Below, one piece after another: positions 16,304 to 24,483 of a stretch of 64,000 nt of DNA (the first letter of the stretch is position 1; every line of letters starts with the position of its first letter). Made by a program: the position numbers and the translations under genes. This DNA comes from Algoriphagus sp. GTDB taxonomy: Bacteria > Bacteroidota > Bacteroidia > Cytophagales > Cyclobacteriaceae. The DNA is taken from NCBI RefSeq assembly GCF_029254265.1, contig NZ_JAQWXX010000048.1, forward strand, positions 27,256 through 91,255. Reading direction: 5' to 3'. Under the pieces are notes generated by a model. It was not told the DNA's origin and ran no database searches. It saw nothing but the letters and a program-made list of their open reading frames with translations.

Positions 16304-17257
16304 ATGGAAAACACCCACTTCCCTTCACTGAACGACATTCGATTTGCCGCAGTTCGGATCAAATCATTTATTCATAAAACTCCAATCTTGACCAATTCCA
16401 CCATCAATGAGATGGCAGGTTGTGAGATTTATTTCAAATGTGAAAACTTCCAGAAGGTTGGAGCTTTCAAAGCTCGTGGCGCTGCAAACGCGGTCATGAA
16501 ACTAACTGATGAGCAAAAGAAAAAGGGTGTAGCCACGCATAGTAGCGGAAATCATGCTGCTGCACTTGCCCGTGCTGCAACTGTGGCTGGAATACCTTCT
16601 TACATCGTGATGCCTTCCAATGCACCGGAGATTAAGAAAAAAGCAGTGAAGGGCTATGGTGGAGAAATTATTGAGTGTGAACCTAATCTCAAAGCACGTG
16701 AGACTACGCTTGAAGCGGTCGTAAAACGTACCGGAGCGACATTTATTCCTCCTTATGATTTTATGGATGTGATCGAAGGGCAAGCAACTTGCGCATTGGA
16801 ATTTCATGAGGAACAGGATGACCTGGAAATTATCATGGCTCCTGTGGGCGGGGGTGGCCTTTTGGGTGGAACAGCCTTACTTACCCATCATTGGGATCCT
16901 GAAATAGAGGTGATCGGTGCGGAACCTGCAGGTGCAGATGATGCCTATCGCTCCTTCCATGCAGGTAAAATTATTCCACAAACAGGCCCAAACACCATTG
17001 CCGATGGATTACTCACTTCTCTTGGAGTTCTGAATTTTGAACTGATCCAGAAGTATGTGTCTGATATCCTTTTAGCGACAGATCCACAGATTATCGCCGC
17101 TATGCGCCTGATCTATGAACGAATGAAGATTATCATCGAACCTTCCTGCGCAGTACCGCTTGCTGCCTTGTTGGCAAATAAAGAGCGCTTCAAAGGAAAA
17201 AAAGTAGGAATTATCCTATCCGGTGGAAATGTGGATTTAGGGAAATTACCTTTTTGA
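16304..17257 (+). CDS. PLP-dependent serine/threonine dehydratase or serine racemase-like enzyme
   Basis: FKCENFQKVGAFKARG, SSGNH, PVGGGGL, EPSCA and ILSGGN. Confidence 0.9.
   Translation: MENTHFPSLNDIRFAAVRIKSFIHKTPILTNSTINEMAGCEIYFKCENFQKVGAFKARGAANAVMKLTDEQKKKGVATHSSGNHAAALARAATVAGIPSYIVMPSNAPEIKKKAVKGYGGEIIECEPNLKARETTLEAVVKRTGATFIPPYDFMDVIEGQATCALEFHEEQDDLEIIMAPVGGGGLLGGTALLTHHWDPEIEVIGAEPAGADDAYRSFHAGKIIPQTGPNTIADGLLTSLGVLNFELIQKYVSDILLATDPQIIAAMRLIYERMKIIIEPSCAVPLAALLANKERFKGKKVGIILSGGNVDLGKLPF
17208..17257 (+). repeat. Direct repeat A (3' 50 bp of the dehydratase; att-like)
   Basis: 46/50 identical to 22660-22709. Confidence 0.92.
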
Positions 17258-17284
17258 TAAAGACTAAAGAGCAATTTGACAAAA

Positions 17285-17533
17285 TCACTTTTTCACCTTC
17301 TTTTCCAAATAAGCCAATAAGGATTTGAGATTACTGGTTTTTCCATAGTCCTCTTCAGGGATATCTACATTCAGTTTCTCGCTAATTGACACGATAAACT
17401 GAAGAGCATCAAAAGAATCGATATTTAGTGCTTCTCGGATATTCTCTTCGGGCATCAGCTGCGAGGGGTCTGTCTCTGGGGCAATCCTTTGCAATAATTG
17501 AAAAACTGTTTTCTTGATTTCTTCCTCGGTCAT
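17285..17533 (-). CDS. Acyl carrier protein
   Basis: 82 aa, acidic; LNIDSFD phosphopantetheine Ser motif; ATGA overlap with the E2 stop. Confidence 0.88.
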   Translation of the reverse strand: MTEEEIKKTVFQLLQRIAPETDPSQLMPEENIREALNIDSFDALQFIVSISEKLNVDIPEEDYGKTSNLKSLLAYLEKKVKK

Positions 17534-18738
17534 AATTCTTCGGGATTTTGTAAGTGTCTATTGAGTGCTGCTAAAAACTTGCTTCCTATTAATCCATCCG
17601 TAGCACGATGATCTGCTGCCAAAGTCACGTCTACAACTGGCCGAATTCCCAACATGCCTTCGTCGGCAAATGGCTGCTCGCTGATTTCTCCAAAACCGAC
17701 AATCCCAACCTGTGGCGGATAAATCAGTCCAAAGACTTTATCCGCTCCTCCTTCTCCGATGCTAGTGATGGTAAATGTGGACTGACTGAGCTCTGAGCTT
17801 CTCAATTTGAAGGCTCGTGCTCTAGGGATAAGATCGTTGAGGTTTTCCATGATTTCGTCCACAGATTTCGAATCTGTCTGAAGGATAGCCGGAACGACAA
17901 TCCCACCAGATCTCAAGGAAACCACAAAACCTATATTGATTTCGTTTTTCCGCTGAAGCCCATTTTCCCATGTTGCATTGAGATCCGGAACTTCATCCAA
18001 TGCTTTTGCTACTGCTTTGATCAAAAGAGCAACAGGTAATAGACGCTTTTGAATCGGCAGCTCTTTGTTGGCTTCCTTCACCCAATCCATGGCTTTGGAC
18101 ATGTCCATCCTTTTTTCCAGATAGTAATGAGGAATCTCGCGGTTGGACTTACTCATGGCAGCAGCCACAGCCATCCGCACAGCATTGGCATTTGCCGTAA
18201 CAGGTTTTGCTGAAATTTCTTTTATTTCCTCTGTTTTCTTTTCAACTTCTTGAGTTGGCTTTTCCCCTTCGGAAATAGCCTCTTCAACGTCTTTTTTCAC
18301 AATCGACCCCTCGGGACCTGTTCCTTTCAACAAGGAAATATCAACCTGATTAGCCTCAGCAATTTTCCTTGCCAAAGGGGAAATCTTTATTCTCTCTCCT
18401 TCTTCAGTTTTCTCATGAGGTGTTTCTGTCTTTTCCTCAATAGGATGAATTTCCGGTTTTTGAGCTTCCTCAGCAGGAATAACAGATTCGGAAACTTCAG
18501 CTTTTCCGTCATTGATCAAAGCCAAAACGGTACCGACAGGAACCTTTTCTCCTTCTTTCACCAGAAGCTTTTCTAAGGTTCCTTCCTCAAAAACCTCTAT
18601 TTCTATCAAGCCTTTTTGCGTTTCCACATCAGCAATAATATCACCTCGATGGAGGACTTCGCCAGTTTGTTTTCTCCATTCAACCAACGTACCGGCTTCC
18701 ATATCTGCACCCAAATTGGGCATTTGAAACTTGATCAT
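17530..18738 (-). CDS. pdhC: 2-oxoacid dehydrogenase E2 (dihydrolipoamide acyltransferase)
   Basis: Lipoyl domain (VETQKG), subunit-binding domain ([14 protein letters not shown]) and DHRATDG catalytic motif. Confidence 0.9.
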
Positions 18739-19721
18739 GGCTTTAGCATTTTTTTAACCTTTTCTAAAATATCCGATACTTGAGGAACAGAAGCATCTTC
18801 CAAATGCTTGGGATACGGAATTGGCACCTCCACACCGCAGAGTCTTTCTACAGGCCCATCCAAATCAAAAAAGGCTTTTTCCATAATTCTGGAAATCACT
18901 TCAGATGAAATACTGACCGATTTCCATGCTTCTTCTACAACTAGCGCTCGATGTGTCTTTTTCACGGAATTCAGGAAAGTCTCCTCATCCATCGGCCTCA
19001 ACACTCTCAAATCAATCACTTCGGCATCAATTCCTTCTTCTCCCAGCGCTTCGGCCGCTTCCAAGCATTTGTAAACTCCCGCACCGTAGGTGATCAGCGA
19101 AATATCTTTTCCTTCGCGAAGGACCTTGGCTTTTTTGATCTCGACAGCTCCTGCATCTGCTGGGATTTCTTTCTCCAGATTCAGCATGAAGGTATATTCA
19201 AAAATGACTACCGGATCAGGACTTTGCATGGCAGAAAGCAACATCCCTCTTGCATCTTCATGGGTACCTACGGAAAGCACAATCAATCCCGGCACATGGG
19301 CAAAAAACGGTTCCCAACTATGGGAATGCTGCGCCGCCAACTGACGACCTATGCCACAACCCATTCGAATCACCACTGGAACATTCAACTGTCCGCCAGA
19401 CATATGGAGAAGAGTCGAAGCATTGTTGACTATTTGATCCATAGCGAGAAGACTGAAATTGACCGTCATCACTTCCACTATTGGCTTCATCCCGGCAAGG
19501 GCAGCCCCAATTCCCGCACCGGTAAATCCGGATTCTGACAGCGGCACATCCATAATCCGATCTGCTCCAAATTCCTTCAACAATCCTTTACTCACGGCGA
19601 ATGCTCCACCATAATTCCCCACATCCTCACCCATTAGGAAAACCCGTTCATCTTTTTGCATGACTTCTCGAATAGCTTGTTTGATAGCCTCTCGGTAAGT
19701 TATTTTGATCATGTCGCTCAT
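18735..19721 (-). CDS. pdhB: 2-oxoacid dehydrogenase E1 beta
   Basis: [22 protein letters not shown] and AQHSHS. Confidence 0.92.
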
Positions 19722-20704
19722 ATCGATTCTGTTTCAGAGTATACAAATCGCGTCAGGTTTTCAGTATCTTCCCAAGTTCCGTTTTCTGCAAACTCAATCG
19801 CTTCTTGAATCTGTGCATCCGCAGCTTTTTCGATTTCGGTTATTTTCTTAGCCGTAATGAGTTTTCCCTTCAGTAAAAATTCCTGAAACTTTGGAATCGG
19901 ATCTTTCTTTTTCCACTCCTCTACCTCCGATTTTTCCCGATATAATTCAGCATCAAACATGGAATGCGCTCGAAATCGATAGGTATTACAAACCAAAAAA
20001 TAGGGCTTCCCTTTTTCCTTGATCGTCTTCACCGCTTTTGCTGTGGCTTCCATCACTGCCAAAAGATCCATCCCGTCTACTGCTGCTGATTCAATGCCAT
20101 AAGCAGGACCCTTTTTCTCCAATTGCTGTACAGAATGGGTTAATTTGATTGCAGTACCCATCGCGTAAAGGTTATTTTCACAAACAAAAAGCACAGGAAC
20201 TTCCCATAATGCGGCTAAATTCATTGACTCATGAAACTCACCTTCTGCTGCAGCTCCCTCGCCAAAAAAGCAACAAGTCACATTATTTTTCTTTTGCTTT
20301 TTTGCTGCCAAAGCCATTCCCACCGCCAATGGCAAATGCCCGCAGACGATTGCATTTCCTCCAAAAAAATTCTTGGTCGCGTCAAAAAGATGCATGGATC
20401 CTCCACGGCCTTTGCTGCAACCTTCTTGCTTTCCATACATCTCCGCCATAATTGCATTAGGATCGACTCCTCTCGCTAGCGCATGTCCATGCTCCCGATA
20501 AGTACAAAGAAGATTATCCTCTTCAGTTAATGCTTGAATAACGCCAACAGCAACTGCCTCCTCACCCGTATAGAGATGCAAGAATCCCCGTATTTTGGAC
20601 TTGGTATATTCTTCAGCAGATTTCTCTTCAAACCTGCGAATGAGTATCATTTGCTGCAAAAGCCTTTGGCCTTCTTTAGCATCTAATTTTTGCTTCTTCT
20701 CCAT
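19718..20704 (-). CDS. pdhA: 2-oxoacid dehydrogenase E1 alpha
   Basis: [28 protein letters not shown]...ENN and YRFRAHS. Start moved to ATG 20704, 4 nt after the acsA stop. Confidence 0.92.
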
Positions 20705-20708
20705 GATT

Positions 20709-22424
20709 TTAGCCTTTTTCAAGTGTAGATAAATCTCCTTCCGGTAATCCCAATTCACGGGCTTTCAACAGCCTTCTCAAGATCTTTCCGCTTTTGGTTT
20801 TAGGAAGACTTTCGATAAAGGAAATTTCTTTGGGAGCTACCGCCGGACCCATCGTCTTTCGGGCGAAGCCAATCAATTCTTGGCTCATTTCGTCAGTAGG
20901 TTCAAAGCCTTCTTTCAGGACTACAAATGCCTTGACCAATTCTCCGATAGATGGTTCAGGTTTTCCGATTACTGCGGCTTCCACCACTGCCGGATGCTTC
21001 ATAAGTGTACTTTCCACTTCAAATGGACCAACCATATGGCCAGAAGTTTTGATGATGTCATCCGCCCTTCCAATAAACCAGAAGTAACCCTCCTTATCAA
21101 TTTTCGCCAGATCCCCAGAGATATACCAGTCTCCTTTAAAGCATTTTTGGTAGCGTTCTTCCTCATGGAGATAACCCCTGAAAAGAGAAGGAAACCCTTT
21201 TTTCAAAACCAAATGACCTTGATTATCCGGCTGATCATAGATCTTGATATCTTCACCTTCTATATCAGCAATCGCTGCGATTATTCCGGGAAGTGGCTTT
21301 CCCATGGAACCTGGTTTTACCTCCATCGAACGATAATTGGCAATCATTATCCCCCCAGTTTCTGTTTGCCACCAATTATCCAGCACGGGAACTCCAAAAG
21401 CTTTTTGTCCCCAGGTCACAGCTCCGGGGTGAAGTGGCTCGCCTACACTTAGTACCAATCTCAAATTAGAAAGGTCATATTTTTCTTTGGGCACCAGTTC
21501 CATTCGCATCAATCTTCGGATGGCCGTTGGCGCAGTATACCACACATTGACTTTCTGCTTTTCCAAAATGGAATACCAGCGCAAGGCATCAAATTCCTCT
21601 TCATCTATGATGCTGGTTACGCCGTTGACCAGAGGAGCCATGATCCCATAAGAAGTGCCGGTCACCCAACCTGGATCTGCAGTACACCAAAAAACATCCC
21701 CCTCATGAAAATCCAATACGTATTTCCCGGTGGTATAATGCGTAAGTACGGCCTGGTGAACGTGTAAAGCACCTTTCGGCATTCCTGTGGTTCCGCTTGT
21801 AAAATGCAACAAAGCCGGGTCTTCCGAATCGGTGGGAGGAATAGTGAATTCTTCAGAAGCTTCCCCCATGAGTTTGGTCAATGAAAGAGCTTTCTTATCC
21901 ACATGCTCATCTGAGTCCGTCAGTAAGATGACTTCTAAGGAAGGAAGCCGATCGAGAAGTCCCTTTATCTTTTTCTCGTAAAAGCTTGTATTGGTGACCA
22001 ACACTTTTGCATCACCCTTACTCAATCGTTGAAAAATGGGTTCTGGTCCAAAAACCGAGAACAAGGGACAAAAAACAGCTTTGAATTTCAGCGTCCCTAA
22101 AGCCGCGATATACAAGTCCGGTACTCGACCCAATAATGAAAAAACCCGTTCTCCTTTTTTCAATCGTAATCCAGCCAGTACATTGGCAAACTTGGAAGTT
22201 TGGGTTTTTAAATCTCCATAAGAGTAATCATTAGTCTTTTCCTCCTTTCCGATAAAGCGAAGCGCAACCGTATTTTTCAAGTGGCCAGAAGCATGCCTAT
22301 CCACCGCTTCATGTGCGATATTCAGTCCTTTTCCGTCGGGTAATCCTGATAATTGATTTCGCTCCTTTTGCCAGTCAAAATCTTGATAAAGCTTGGCATA
22401 ATCGGTTAAATTTGGCTTTTTCAT
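20709..22424 (-). CDS. acsA: Acetate/short acyl-CoA ligase (AMP-forming)
   Basis: [30 protein letters not shown] and TKSGKILRR. Confidence 0.92.
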
Positions 22425-22580: not shown

Positions 22581-22594
22581 ATGACTTAAATCAT
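22581..22594. promoter_or_regulatory. Candidate Crp/Fnr-type operator ATGAC-N4-ATCAT
   Basis: Near-palindrome about 157 bp upstream of the acsA start; same geometry as TTGAT-N4-ATCAA. Confidence 0.35.
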
Positions 22595-22659
22595 ATTCTT
22601 CGGCATTGAAATGAGATGTTTTAAAGACTAAAGGAACAGATAACTCCTAAAAAATGACA

Positions 22660-22709
22660 GAATCATCCTCTCCGGCGGAAATGTGGATTTAGGGAAATTG
22701 CCTTTTTGA
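22660..22709 (+). repeat. Direct repeat B (orphan copy of the dehydratase 3' end, encodes IILSGGNVDLGKLPF*)
   Basis: Four differences from copy A, all at synonymous third positions. Confidence 0.92.
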
Positions 22710-22871
22710 GTTCGTCACCAAGTCAACAAAGGCTATTGCCAAGTACCCAAAGGGTTTTAACCACATAGGAGTAAAGCATAGTCAAAAATCGTTAAAGAAT
22801 GAAAGCAATCTATTTTCCATAAGATTGGTCAATTAATATAACCAGAGAATCAAGTTGCCTTTTTGATTAAG

Positions 22872-22906
22872 AAAACAGCCCAAATCTTTCGACTTGGGCT
22901 GTTTTT
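22872..22906. terminator. Terminator hairpin, copy 1
   Basis: AAAACAGCCCAA-loop-TTGGGCTGTTTT; its 26-bp core is 25/26 identical to 24488-24513. Confidence 0.85.
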
Positions 22907-23072
22907 GTATTTTTAAGATCGCATCGCACACTATCTTCGGCAGGTAAATCTAATTTATTGTCATAATTGTTCTTTTTGTAGTAGAAACAAGTACCTAAAT
23001 TTCTTCTTTACACTCATTTTAATTTCCACAAAATCTACCATCTCATCTTTGTTGTTGAATAATTGATCCTTT

Positions 23073-23684
23073 TCAATCGAGAAACAGCAAGTCTTTCCTA
23101 GATACTTCTATCCATTCATTATTTTCCCATAGAAACATAAATGCCGTTAAGGGAGTAAGTTCACTATGATTACTATTTGATTTTATAATTAGAAATCCGA
23201 TAGTTCTGGCTTTAGTATTGATTATTAAAGGACTAGAAATCTTTAGACTCCAATATTTATTGGATTTTTTTGGCCATTGTTTGATTGACTTTAAATTACA
23301 CTCATCACTTATTGTCGTTTCGTAAGATGAATCAATTAATGTATCTAAAATATTCATATCAATTTTTTCACCAATAAGCGTAGATAAACTATCAGAAATT
23401 AATTGTCCACCTTTGATTAAAGGAAAGAAGACTGATTCAAGTTCTGAACCATTCCCTATTTCTTCAGAAAAGGCAAAGGTCTTATTCAAAATTTTATATT
23501 TCCCTTCGCCTTTCTCTAATAATACACAGACTTTATTCATTAGTTTTTCACTTTTTGTTTGTGCAGATAAGTAAATAGAGTTAGTCAAGACTATTAGTAC
23601 AGCTAGAATAAGAGCACTTTTGGCCTTTTGCATTAGGGTCACCGAGAGTTTCATGTGTTTGTTATTCATTTTTAGCGGACACAT
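23073..23684 (-). CDS. Hypothetical, probably secreted, AT-rich protein
   Basis: 203-aa ORF with a hydrophobic N-terminal segment; true start uncertain. Confidence 0.55.
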   Translation of the reverse strand: MCPLKMNNKHMKLSVTLMQKAKSALILAVLIVLTNSIYLSAQTKSEKLMNKVCVLLEKGEGKYKILNKTFAFSEEIGNGSELESVFFPLIKGGQLISDSLSTLIGEKIDMNILDTLIDSSYETTISDECNLKSIKQWPKKSNKYWSLKISSPLIINTKARTIGFLIIKSNSNHSELTPLTAFMFLWENNEWIEVSRKDLLFLD

Positions 23685-23728
23685 ATACTCTTGAAGGGTT
23701 GAAAAAAAGAATTACACATCCCAAACTA

Positions 23729-24409
23729 TTATTCAATCTCTGACAATATTTTGCTCAATCCACCCATTCCATGGTCAATCACAAAATGAAGCGTTTTATT
23801 GTCTGGCGCATCAACCATCTCCAGAATATCTAAGAAGTATCCTTTTGCATCCTCGCCTGAACCCATAGTACCTATTTCTTTTTCATAGTATTTGGTGATC
23901 AACACATAACCATCAATAGGAGAAATCACAAAATAAGGGCGCTCTTTGGAGCCGTCGCCGGTAGACAAAATAGATTCCGCGATTAACTTAAATCTTGCTT
24001 CATACTTCTTCGTTTCCTGTTCATTTATAATCTTGGAATTTGCCTTCCAGAGGCCATAGTTAACCGACAAATCAACAGGGTTCATTTCGTAAACTAACTT
24101 CCCGTATTTCAAAAGTGTATCCGGTGAAACCTGATCTGTAGCTAAAAAAGATCTTTCCAAACCAACCATTCCATAGGCATTGTAGCTTTCTTGGGCAGTT
24201 TGTCCGATCAACAATCGAATTACTTCTTTCTTCGTGAAATTCTCTCCCTCTTCATTAAACCTGGATCTAAGACTTTCATAAAAATTGGGGTCGTCTTGAA
24301 TTTTAGATAGTTTGTAATATTTAGGGTAGTCCTCTGAGTAAGTGAAGTTTTGAGAAAATACTCCAAAACTAATGACACTTAGCAGGAAGGTTGCAATCAG
24401 ATTTTTCAT
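23729..24409 (-). CDS. DUF4919-like secreted protein
   Basis: Signal peptide; ILSTGDG..ERPYFVI segment recalled as typical of this family. Confidence 0.7.
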   Translation of the reverse strand: MKNLIATFLLSVISFGVFSQNFTYSEDYPKYYKLSKIQDDPNFYESLRSRFNEEGENFTKKEVIRLLIGQTAQESYNAYGMVGLERSFLATDQVSPDTLLKYGKLVYEMNPVDLSVNYGLWKANSKIINEQETKKYEARFKLIAESILSTGDGSKERPYFVISPIDGYVLITKYYEKEIGTMGSGEDAKGYFLDILEMVDAPDNKTLHFVIDHGMGGLSKILSEIE

Positions 24410-24483
24410 GCTTTTTTTTGAAAGATAAACTATCTTTTAATTAATCAAAACGATTTTCTTTTTCCTTGATGATCTTAGAAATA

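Follow-up and report, generated by a model that had tools for sequence, protein, structure and literature searches.

What does a pyruvate dehydrogenase (PDH)-type enzyme core do when it is encoded together with an acetate ligase and an acyl carrier protein (ACP), and with no gene for lipoamide dehydrogenase (E3)? The question arises from five genes of Algoriphagus sp. located in a 64,000-nucleotide stretch of contig NZ_JAQWXX010000048.1 (assembly GCF_029254265.1, positions 27,256 to 91,255), which was analysed as a whole and is called the window hereafter. A textbook 2-oxoacid dehydrogenase is an E1-E2-E3 assembly that hands its acyl group to coenzyme A (CoA), whereas here a PDH-type core is accompanied by an acetate ligase and a carrier of its own. 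The answer that we favour, tentatively and at slightly less than an even chance, is that the cassette is a mobile low-oxygen pyruvate/acetate module carrying acetyl on its own ACP, in which a second E1α2β2/E2 core and a Bacillus-type acetate ligase stand behind a CRP/FNR-type promoter in an aerobic Algoriphagus. The parts belong to known families, but their combination with an ACP in it is new. Full-text literature searches gave no description of the cassette, nor does it figure in the papers on the Burkholderia cenocepacia lxa locus or on Bradyrhizobium diazoefficiens, and annotation pipelines label its parts generically as acsA, pdhA and 'acyl carrier protein'.

The operon spans 22424..17285 on the minus strand, with five co-directional genes arranged head to tail. 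The first encodes an AcsA-type AMP-forming acetate ligase (20709..22424; 571 aa) and is followed by the genes for a PDH-type E1alpha (19718..20704; 328 aa counted from the ATG at 20704, the longest open reading frame (ORF) beginning at a GTG at 20758), a PDH-type E1beta (18735..19721; 328 aa), an E2 dihydrolipoyl acyltransferase (17530..18738; 402 aa) with one lipoyl domain, a peripheral subunit-binding domain (PSBD) and a catalytic domain, and finally a private ACP (17285..17533; 82 aa). A 4-nt gap separates AcsA from E1alpha, and ATGA overlaps join E1alpha to E1beta, E1beta to E2 and E2 to ACP. The original prediction, drawn from the letters of the window, had described five tightly coupled genes in which the E2 keeps its lipoyl Lys and DHRxxDG motif and the ACP its attachment Ser; re-reading coordinates and junctions from the ORFs bears this out, the translations containing DVETQKG and DHRATDG in the E2 and NIDSFD in the ACP. 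All five genes evolve under purifying selection, with dN/dS of 0.04-0.10 relative to A. lutimaris (0.045 for the ACP), which together with the recurrence of the same gene order elsewhere rules out a chance assembly.

On their scores against curated NCBIfam cut-offs, AcsA is an acetate--CoA ligase and E1alpha and E1beta are PDH E1 subunits. AcsA reaches 880 bits with NF003313 (cut-off 729), E1alpha 441 bits with TIGR03182 (cut-off 394) and E1beta, which has the domains Transket_pyr and Transketolase_C, 402 bits with NF006667 (cut-off 321). The nearest solved structures are 9g79, a 572-aa AcsA (E 4e-169), for the ligase and human PDH E1alpha (E 1e-66) for E1alpha. Alignment with solved Acs enzymes revealed that AcsA retains the acetate-pocket motif NWWQTETGG, including its Trp, as well as the catalytic Lys (A10) of KSGKILRR, and since the pocket is retained the substrate is probably an acetate-sized acid. 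From these family scores and pocket residues we infer pyruvate and acetate as the probable substrates of the cassette. In its NF003313 score, pocket Trp and catalytic Lys the ligase resembles the Bacillus subtilis-type AcsA (PRK04319), from which it differs in being encoded always in an operon with E1, E2 and ACP.

The same scores, which exceed equivalog and subfamily cut-offs of CoA ligases and PDH, speak for the main rival explanation, in which the cassette encodes ordinary CoA-dependent PDH and Acs isozymes for low oxygen or stress that use the host E3, the ACP being an accessory with a structural or regulatory part or serving as octanoyl donor for lipoylation of the E2. We consider this plain CoA chemistry unlikely, if less so than the two further rivals discussed below. 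Its octanoyl variant is weakened by the pocket Trp, which restricts AcsA to acetate-sized acids and makes activation of octanoate improbable; a role of AcsA and ACP in octanoate activation or lipoylation was disfavoured on this ground.

The ACP itself matches PF00550 (E 2e-7) and stays under every NCBIfam ACP cut-off. It bears the D-S-x-D motif, whose residues D39 and S40 are invariant across 68 diverse members of the family. When 1.84 billion representative proteins were searched with the ACP profile, the subfamily comprised 332 clusters (50% identity) at E<=1e-10; for a broader profile the count, at 90% identity, was at least 7,127 clusters. The nearest solved relatives of the ACP profile are ACPs of fatty acid synthase type and of mitochondrial complex I, a kinship that favours the accessory role postulated by the isozyme explanation. 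The mitochondrial ACP is a structural or regulatory subunit of other complexes. On the other hand, strict retention of the ACP and its start-stop coupling to the E2 across phyla are hard to explain for a dispensable accessory. It is on this co-inheritance and coupling, and on the natural-product precedents considered below, that our speculation of the ACP as acetyl acceptor, donor or both is based.

Protein fusions were also considered in this respect. Two candidate E2-ACP fusions among proteins of 266-847 aa, scored on their ACP part, were rejected as frameshift artefacts because the sequence between the domains is out of frame. A genuine fusion joins an ACP of this subfamily to a GNAT acetyltransferase in P0186 (301 aa; L087:439-1344), a protein encoded in an island of universal stress protein (USP), CBS-BON and cytochrome c genes with no E2 upstream. 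This fusion may hint at acetyl as cargo of the ACP family.

The E2 is composed of the Pfam domains Biotin_lipoyl, E3_binding and 2-oxoacid_dh, and its nearest solved relative is the mammalian (human) PDH E2, with 267 bits to TIGR01349 and thus under the cut-off of 445. An acetoin dehydrogenase E2 of the AcoC type was tried and rejected, as NF011457 matches the lipoyl/PSBD part only, with 73.8 bits against a cut-off of 307. At the site where canonical E2s have an Arg, the PSBD of the window E2 reads GTGPEG-S-I, and among cassette E2s of the phyla sampled, 44 of 45 have Ala, Ser, Glu or Val in place of the Arg of GxGxxG-R-I, which is kept in all three housekeeping E2s of the Algoriphagus genome and in human E2. 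Basic residues of the PSBD generally mediate binding of peripheral subunits (PMC6270654). We read the loss of this Arg as a probable family-wide change in what the E2 docks, be it E3, E1 or both, a change that would fit the absence of an E3 gene. With regard to the isozyme explanation the E2 points both ways, in that the domain is kept, as expected for a subunit using host E3, but its Arg is lost.

Loss at the equivalent position has been described in anoxia-tolerant Carassius, whose duplicated PDH set shows a weakened E1-E2 (PSBD) contact. Position 382 (human E2 numbering) is basic and contributes, with one other basic site, to the contact of E1 with E2; the Carassius set has lost this residue, and a looser complex was proposed to result (PMC5554223). 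This precedent and the equivalent Arg loss in cassette E2s, together with the zinc alcohol dehydrogenase (Zn-ADH) and short-chain dehydrogenase/reductase (SDR) genes that lie near the cassette in several loci and carry the same promoter box, are what lends some support to a non-oxidative or aldehyde-forming E1, acting as a pyruvate decarboxylase that feeds alcohol dehydrogenase or in acetoin/diacetyl cleavage, for which E3 would be unneeded. We regard this possibility as very unlikely, since the conserved lipoyl Lys and catalytic His of the E2, its purifying selection and its translational coupling argue that the E2 chemistry is used, the acetoin-type family scores far too low, and neither AcsA nor the ACP would be explained.

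Further differences between the cassette E2s and the three housekeeping E2s include basic residues lost in the first helix (K193A, R194A) and the gain of R232, R276 and R313. These substitutions in the catalytic domain might reflect a remodelled acceptor site; since those arginines are absent from other canonical E2s too, we draw no conclusion from them. The C-terminal Asp of E1beta, equivalent to human D319, follows no consistent pattern.

How could such an E2 be re-oxidised? The prediction that the cassette is devoid of E3, PPTase (phosphopantetheinyl transferase), ketosynthase and thioesterase held, none being encoded in it or in the adjoining genes. With the E3s and PPTases of this genome as tblastn queries, homologues of either were found neither in the 64-kb window nor in 53 related loci totalling 872 kb. 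Lack of E3 is, however, a property of the cassette and of every locus searched and not of the genome, which has two E3 genes elsewhere, one of them adjoining an E2, so that E3 could be supplied in trans, as the isozyme explanation would have it. Likewise, the genome contains homologues of AcpS-type and Sfp-type PPTases, plus pta-ackA.

Four E2 genes occur in this Algoriphagus genome, and the three outside the cassette resemble those of PDH, 2-oxoglutarate dehydrogenase and branched-chain 2-oxoacid dehydrogenase (BCKDH). Identity of the cassette proteins to their housekeeping counterparts is 45% for E1alpha (contig C81), 45% for E1beta (contig C130), 30% for E2 and 34% for the long Acs. The presence of the housekeeping complexes and identities of 30-45% indicate that the cassette is an extra, diverged set. 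The long-type Acs is encoded on the same contig (C38:13988-15760), upstream of the window and about 32 kb from the cassette AcsA. Compared with PDHs having a heterotetrameric E1 (PdhA/PdhB/PdhC/Lpd), the cassette is alike in E1 scores, E2 domains, lipoyl Lys and DHRxxDG, but has no E3 in any locus and contains an ACP gene where Gram-positive operons have pdhD. It is, moreover, always led by AcsA, its E2 falls under the family cut-off and has lost the PSBD Arg, and the whole set is accessory, mobile and plasmid-borne.

The thiamine diphosphate (ThDP) motif of E1alpha deserves a separate comment. It reads GEG-x26-NN (GEG...ENN), its GEG aligning with GDG of human PDH E1alpha, and it had been proposed as a possible diagnostic of ACP-linked E1alpha subunits. 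Our survey contradicts this proposal. GEG occurs in 36 of 37 Bacteroidota cassette E1alphas, the remaining one, from an Algoriphagus cassette, having GDG, and the housekeeping E1alpha of the Algoriphagus genome has GDG as well. Among five distant cassettes two have GEG and three GDG, and the solved and active human BCKDH E1alpha itself has GEG...NN. GEG as a marker of ACP linkage was consequently rejected: the GDG of distant cassettes and the GEG of human BCKDH indicate that Glu is a tolerated ligand variant, and on this sampling GEG is the habit of a clade.

A pattern scan with the ACP alignment retrieved 45 Bacteroidota loci, from Cyclobacteriaceae, Flavobacteriaceae, Saprospiraceae, Daejeonella and Ohtaekwangia. 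The order AcsA-E1alpha-E1beta-E2-ACP was observed in about 38 of them, wherever the contig allows, with identities of 70-95% for AcsA and 52-99% for the ACP, and the stop of E2 overlaps the start of the ACP gene in nearly every locus. The same five genes appeared in a Bradyrhizobium metagenome-assembled genome (MAG), in Gaiellaceae (Actinomycetota), in a MAG labelled Deltaproteobacteria and on two unclassified contigs. In all, the cassette is present in at least four phyla, with carriers in Bacteroidota, Alphaproteobacteria, Actinomycetota and Thermodesulfobacteriota. The cross-phylum proteins are 55-64% (AcsA, E1) and 38-48% (E2, ACP) identical to those of the window, closer than the paralogues of the same genome, and hence constitute a distinct orthologous set. 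The original prediction also had it that comparable cassettes exist in further phyla, often close to genes of stress or hypoxia, and this proved right: the five genes often lie beside genes of stress or dormancy.

Recurrent neighbours are also relevant to the possibility that E1/E2, AcsA or both make an acyl-ACP, with acetyl or another unit derived from a 2-oxoacid, as starter or donor for a lipid, a polymer, a secondary metabolite or protein acetylation. Precedents exist in QncN/QncL/QncM of quinocarcin, its naphthyridinomycin counterpart and SclQ1-4 of scleric acid, in which a two-carbon unit passes from ThDP via a lipoyl arm to an ACP (PMC6335953). The cassette parallels these systems in that the genes for a ThDP-dependent E1, a lipoyl acyltransferase and a small ACP of its own lie together, and the ACP-GNAT protein of one stress island as well as the SDR gene found in 13 Bacteroidota loci also speak for such a function. 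Nevertheless, the Qnc, Nap and Scl enzymes are located in non-ribosomal peptide synthetase (NRPS) clusters, take a ketose phosphate, make glycolicacyl-ACP and, in Scl, have a PPTase, whereas the cassette E1 is PDH-like and not transketolase-like, an acetate ligase is present, and the context is one of stress, low oxygen and energy metabolism. No ketosynthase, NRPS or polyketide synthase (PKS), thioesterase, acyltransferase or PPTase is conserved beside the cassette in 53 loci, which lack any assembly line, and genes of an NRPS/PKS cluster are missing from the recurrent neighbours recorded for 44 Bacteroidota loci and from six loci of other phyla or unclassified origin, two of which are plasmid records. 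Since the cassette also moves as five genes alone, as in the window, a biosynthetic loading function appears improbable.

The ACP was found on 35 plasmid records, beside an annotated E2 in most of those having a gene table, with hosts that include Leisingera, Rhodococcus, Cupriavidus, Sinorhizobium fredii, Paraburkholderia phymatum and Methylocystis. Two of the 35 records were inspected. In the conjugative large plasmid of Desulfotalea psychrophila LSv54, a strict anaerobe, a lipoate-protein ligase gene directly follows the ACP (L089:10336-11346) and again no E3 is present. This ligase implies that the lipoyl arm matters to the cassette, and to the extent that it makes lipoylation a concern it favours the isozyme explanation with its octanoyl donor; against this, lipA, lipB and lplA are missing from the other 52 loci. 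The cassette of S. fredii pSF45436d is surrounded by genes for USP, Hsp20, BON, FtsH, nicotinate phosphoribosyltransferase (NAPRTase) and a J-domain protein. Carriers that can be cultured include Algoriphagus marinus am2, A. lutimaris KCTC 22630, Flavobacterium frigoris DSM 15719, Leisingera methylohalidivorans DSM 14336 and S. fredii CCBAU 45436, the host of pSF45436d.

In the window, mobility has left a readable trace. Upstream of the ACP end of the operon in coordinate terms lies a BhcB/threonine-dehydratase-like gene (16304..17257), whose functional 3' end forms the left copy of a 61-nt direct repeat (17197..17257, plus strand). The right copy (22649..22709, plus strand), 87% identical to the left one, is an orphan dehydratase 3' end that shares 90% identity with the corresponding gene ends of the cassette-free congeners G019 and G002. 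In G019 the GMC oxidoreductase gene that the window has beyond the insertion comes after the dehydratase gene at a distance of no more than 0.8 kb. By this comparison the cassette is a 5.4-kb insertion, its far edge marked by the right repeat copy. The view of it as a stand-alone module, put forward in the original prediction, is supported. Of 24 congeners 2 have the cassette ACP, as do 7 of 400 sampled Bacteroidota genomes (approximately 2%). Between positions 16304-22424 of the window and A. lutimaris, synonymous divergence amounts to 0.8-1.2 in the cassette genes and 2.6 in the flanking dehydratase, which suggests that the cassette has been exchanged among Algoriphagus species after their divergence. 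Low dN/dS, a divergence below that of the flank and the anatomy of the insertion together indicate that the cassette is functional, younger in the lineage than its flank, and mobile.

Next to it lies an AT-rich segment of about 1.8 kb (22635-24474) with two ORFs (23073..23684 and 23729..24409) and no NCBIfam match. In an RNA-seq contig of a relative with approximately 89% identity, this segment is swapped for 77 other letters. It looks like a second, independent insertion because near-identical terminator-like sequences bound it.

Under which conditions would the operon be expressed? A CRP/FNR-type palindrome, TGATTTAAGTCA (22582..22593, minus strand), is located 158 nt upstream of the ATG of AcsA and conforms to the pattern TGAY-N4-RTCA (consensus aTGAy-N4-rTCAt). 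Of 34 Bacteroidota loci, at least 21 have such a box in the intergenic region before the first gene, which encodes either PEP synthase (PpsA) or AcsA; over 737 kb of these loci the background frequency is 0.15 per kb. In the same genome it precedes the gene for a CcoN-FixO cbb3 oxidase (ccoNO) and those for a FixI-type ATPase, an M50-CBS protease and Pta, the latter next to ackA; box sites of this genome (G000) were recorded at C14:281-5799, C101:154 and C35:47060. This set of boxes outlines a candidate FNR-type low-oxygen regulon. Of the two rhizobial copies, that of Bradyrhizobium has a FixK-type TTGA-N6-TCAA site at -69 from acsA, and that on the S. fredii plasmid has two, at -65 and -187. 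The motif TGA-N6-TCA is the core shared by Anr/Fnr sites and the B. cenocepacia lxa low-oxygen motif (PMC3721108). Boxes of FNR or FixK type thus stand upstream in Bacteroidota and in both rhizobial copies, in agreement with the predicted link to low oxygen, and from these promoter motifs we infer that the cassette is probably induced when oxygen is low. As for expression, the sequencing runs that hold the window itself are metagenome DNA only, while the operon is covered by RNA-seq contigs of the relative with approximately 89% identity, in which it is thus transcribed; one run yielded a separate contig spanning 16333-22411.

Islands of strict aerobes behind TGA-N6-TCA boxes have been described in B. 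cenocepacia (lxa) and in the mycobacterial DosR regulon, with a content of USPs, alpha-crystallin, class II ribonucleotide reductase, cation ATPase, alcohol dehydrogenases and an ATP-yielding branch from acetyl to acetate (PMC3721108). The neighbours of the cassette at other loci are of the same kind, but lxa has Pta-AckA and no PDH/ACP cassette, and the cassette of the window stands alone. Among the Bacteroidota loci the most frequent neighbour is PpsA, in 16 loci and usually directly upstream, followed by the SDR already mentioned, a zinc-ribbon protein (11 loci), a 146-aa protein with no Pfam match (10), M50-CBS protease (9), HtrA (8), phospholipase D (PLD; 7), a lactate-dehydrogenase-like D-2-hydroxyacid dehydrogenase, a P-type ATPase and OsmC (6 each) and Zn-ADH (5). 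USP, Hsp20, BON, NAPRTase and a gene with a ribonucleotide reductase domain also occur across loci. The 146-aa protein gene, absent from the window, usually comes directly after the ACP, at about 270 nt from its start; it does so in 9 of 10 loci. In the tenth, L056, it is situated approximately 0.7 kb downstream of the ACP and on the opposite strand.

Taken together, these observations can be arranged in a conditional scheme. The E1 would decarboxylate pyruvate and reductively acetylate the lipoyl arm of the E2, which would then hand the acetyl group to a thiol acceptor, in our view the phosphopantetheine of the co-translated private ACP and possibly CoA too. AcsA would interconvert the acetyl thioester and free acetate, either by ATP-driven loading or by release of acetate with formation of ATP at high AMP and PPi, while the reduced lipoyl arm would be re-oxidised in trans by either host E3, or with lower efficiency if no docking takes place. 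In the ATP-forming direction, and in combination with neighbours such as the lactate-dehydrogenase-like enzyme and alcohol dehydrogenase, this could amount to a pyruvate dismutation sustaining aerobes in anoxia. The direction of flux through AcsA, loading or ATP-forming, is a matter of speculation. In Syntrophus, an Acs that runs backwards from acetyl-CoA has been proven to form ATP (PMC4992975, PMC13404658). In SaAcs1 of Syntrophus aciditrophicus, a long-type Acs, the bias maps to a CoA-binding loop, E-G-x-R-x-x-R, and the use of this loop as a test of reverse bias was discarded as inapplicable, since on our reading of the alignment the short AcsA enzymes, that of B. subtilis included, are devoid of it.

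Several considerations weigh against the scheme. Ordinary CoA chemistry would suffice, because AcsA is by its score a genuine acetate--CoA ligase, and the general acyltransferase site of the E2 is kept. A PDH that makes NADH would be a strange enzyme to employ at low oxygen, and the part sensitive to NADH is the host E3. An ATP-yielding acetate branch appears redundant in this genome because pta-ackA is already behind the same box; ackA is absent from both other cassette-positive congeners, in a comparison of three genomes only. The box is short and only mildly enriched genome-wide, at 0.175 per kb in intergenic regions against 0.117 per kb, and the RNA evidence consists of assembled contigs of a relative that carry no oxygen contrast. 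Lastly, the cassette is solitary in the window, with no stress island around it, and no true E2-ACP or AcsA-ACP fusion was found.

Beyond the low-oxygen module with its own carrier that we favour, a bolder version may be envisaged, a CoA-independent acetyl relay for aerobes starved of oxygen, in which E1/E2 load the private ACP with acetyl from pyruvate and AcsA discharges acetyl-S-ACP with AMP and PPi to acetate and ATP, E3 being no longer docked canonically as the PSBD is remodelled by loss of its Arg. We hold this relay to be doubtful, a shade less so than the biosynthetic loading function; if true, it would represent a new kind of substrate-level phosphorylation module travelling as five genes.

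Overall, these findings point to an unrecognised handling of two-carbon units when respiration fails. Even the conservative interpretation, low-oxygen PDH and Acs isozymes, would still fill a gap in explaining how strict aerobes survive anoxia. If the ACP is indeed the acetyl acceptor, carrier-protein chemistry would be extended into central energy metabolism, and a widespread, repeatedly transferred fitness module of aerobes living in hypoxic sediments, nodules and biofilms would find its explanation.

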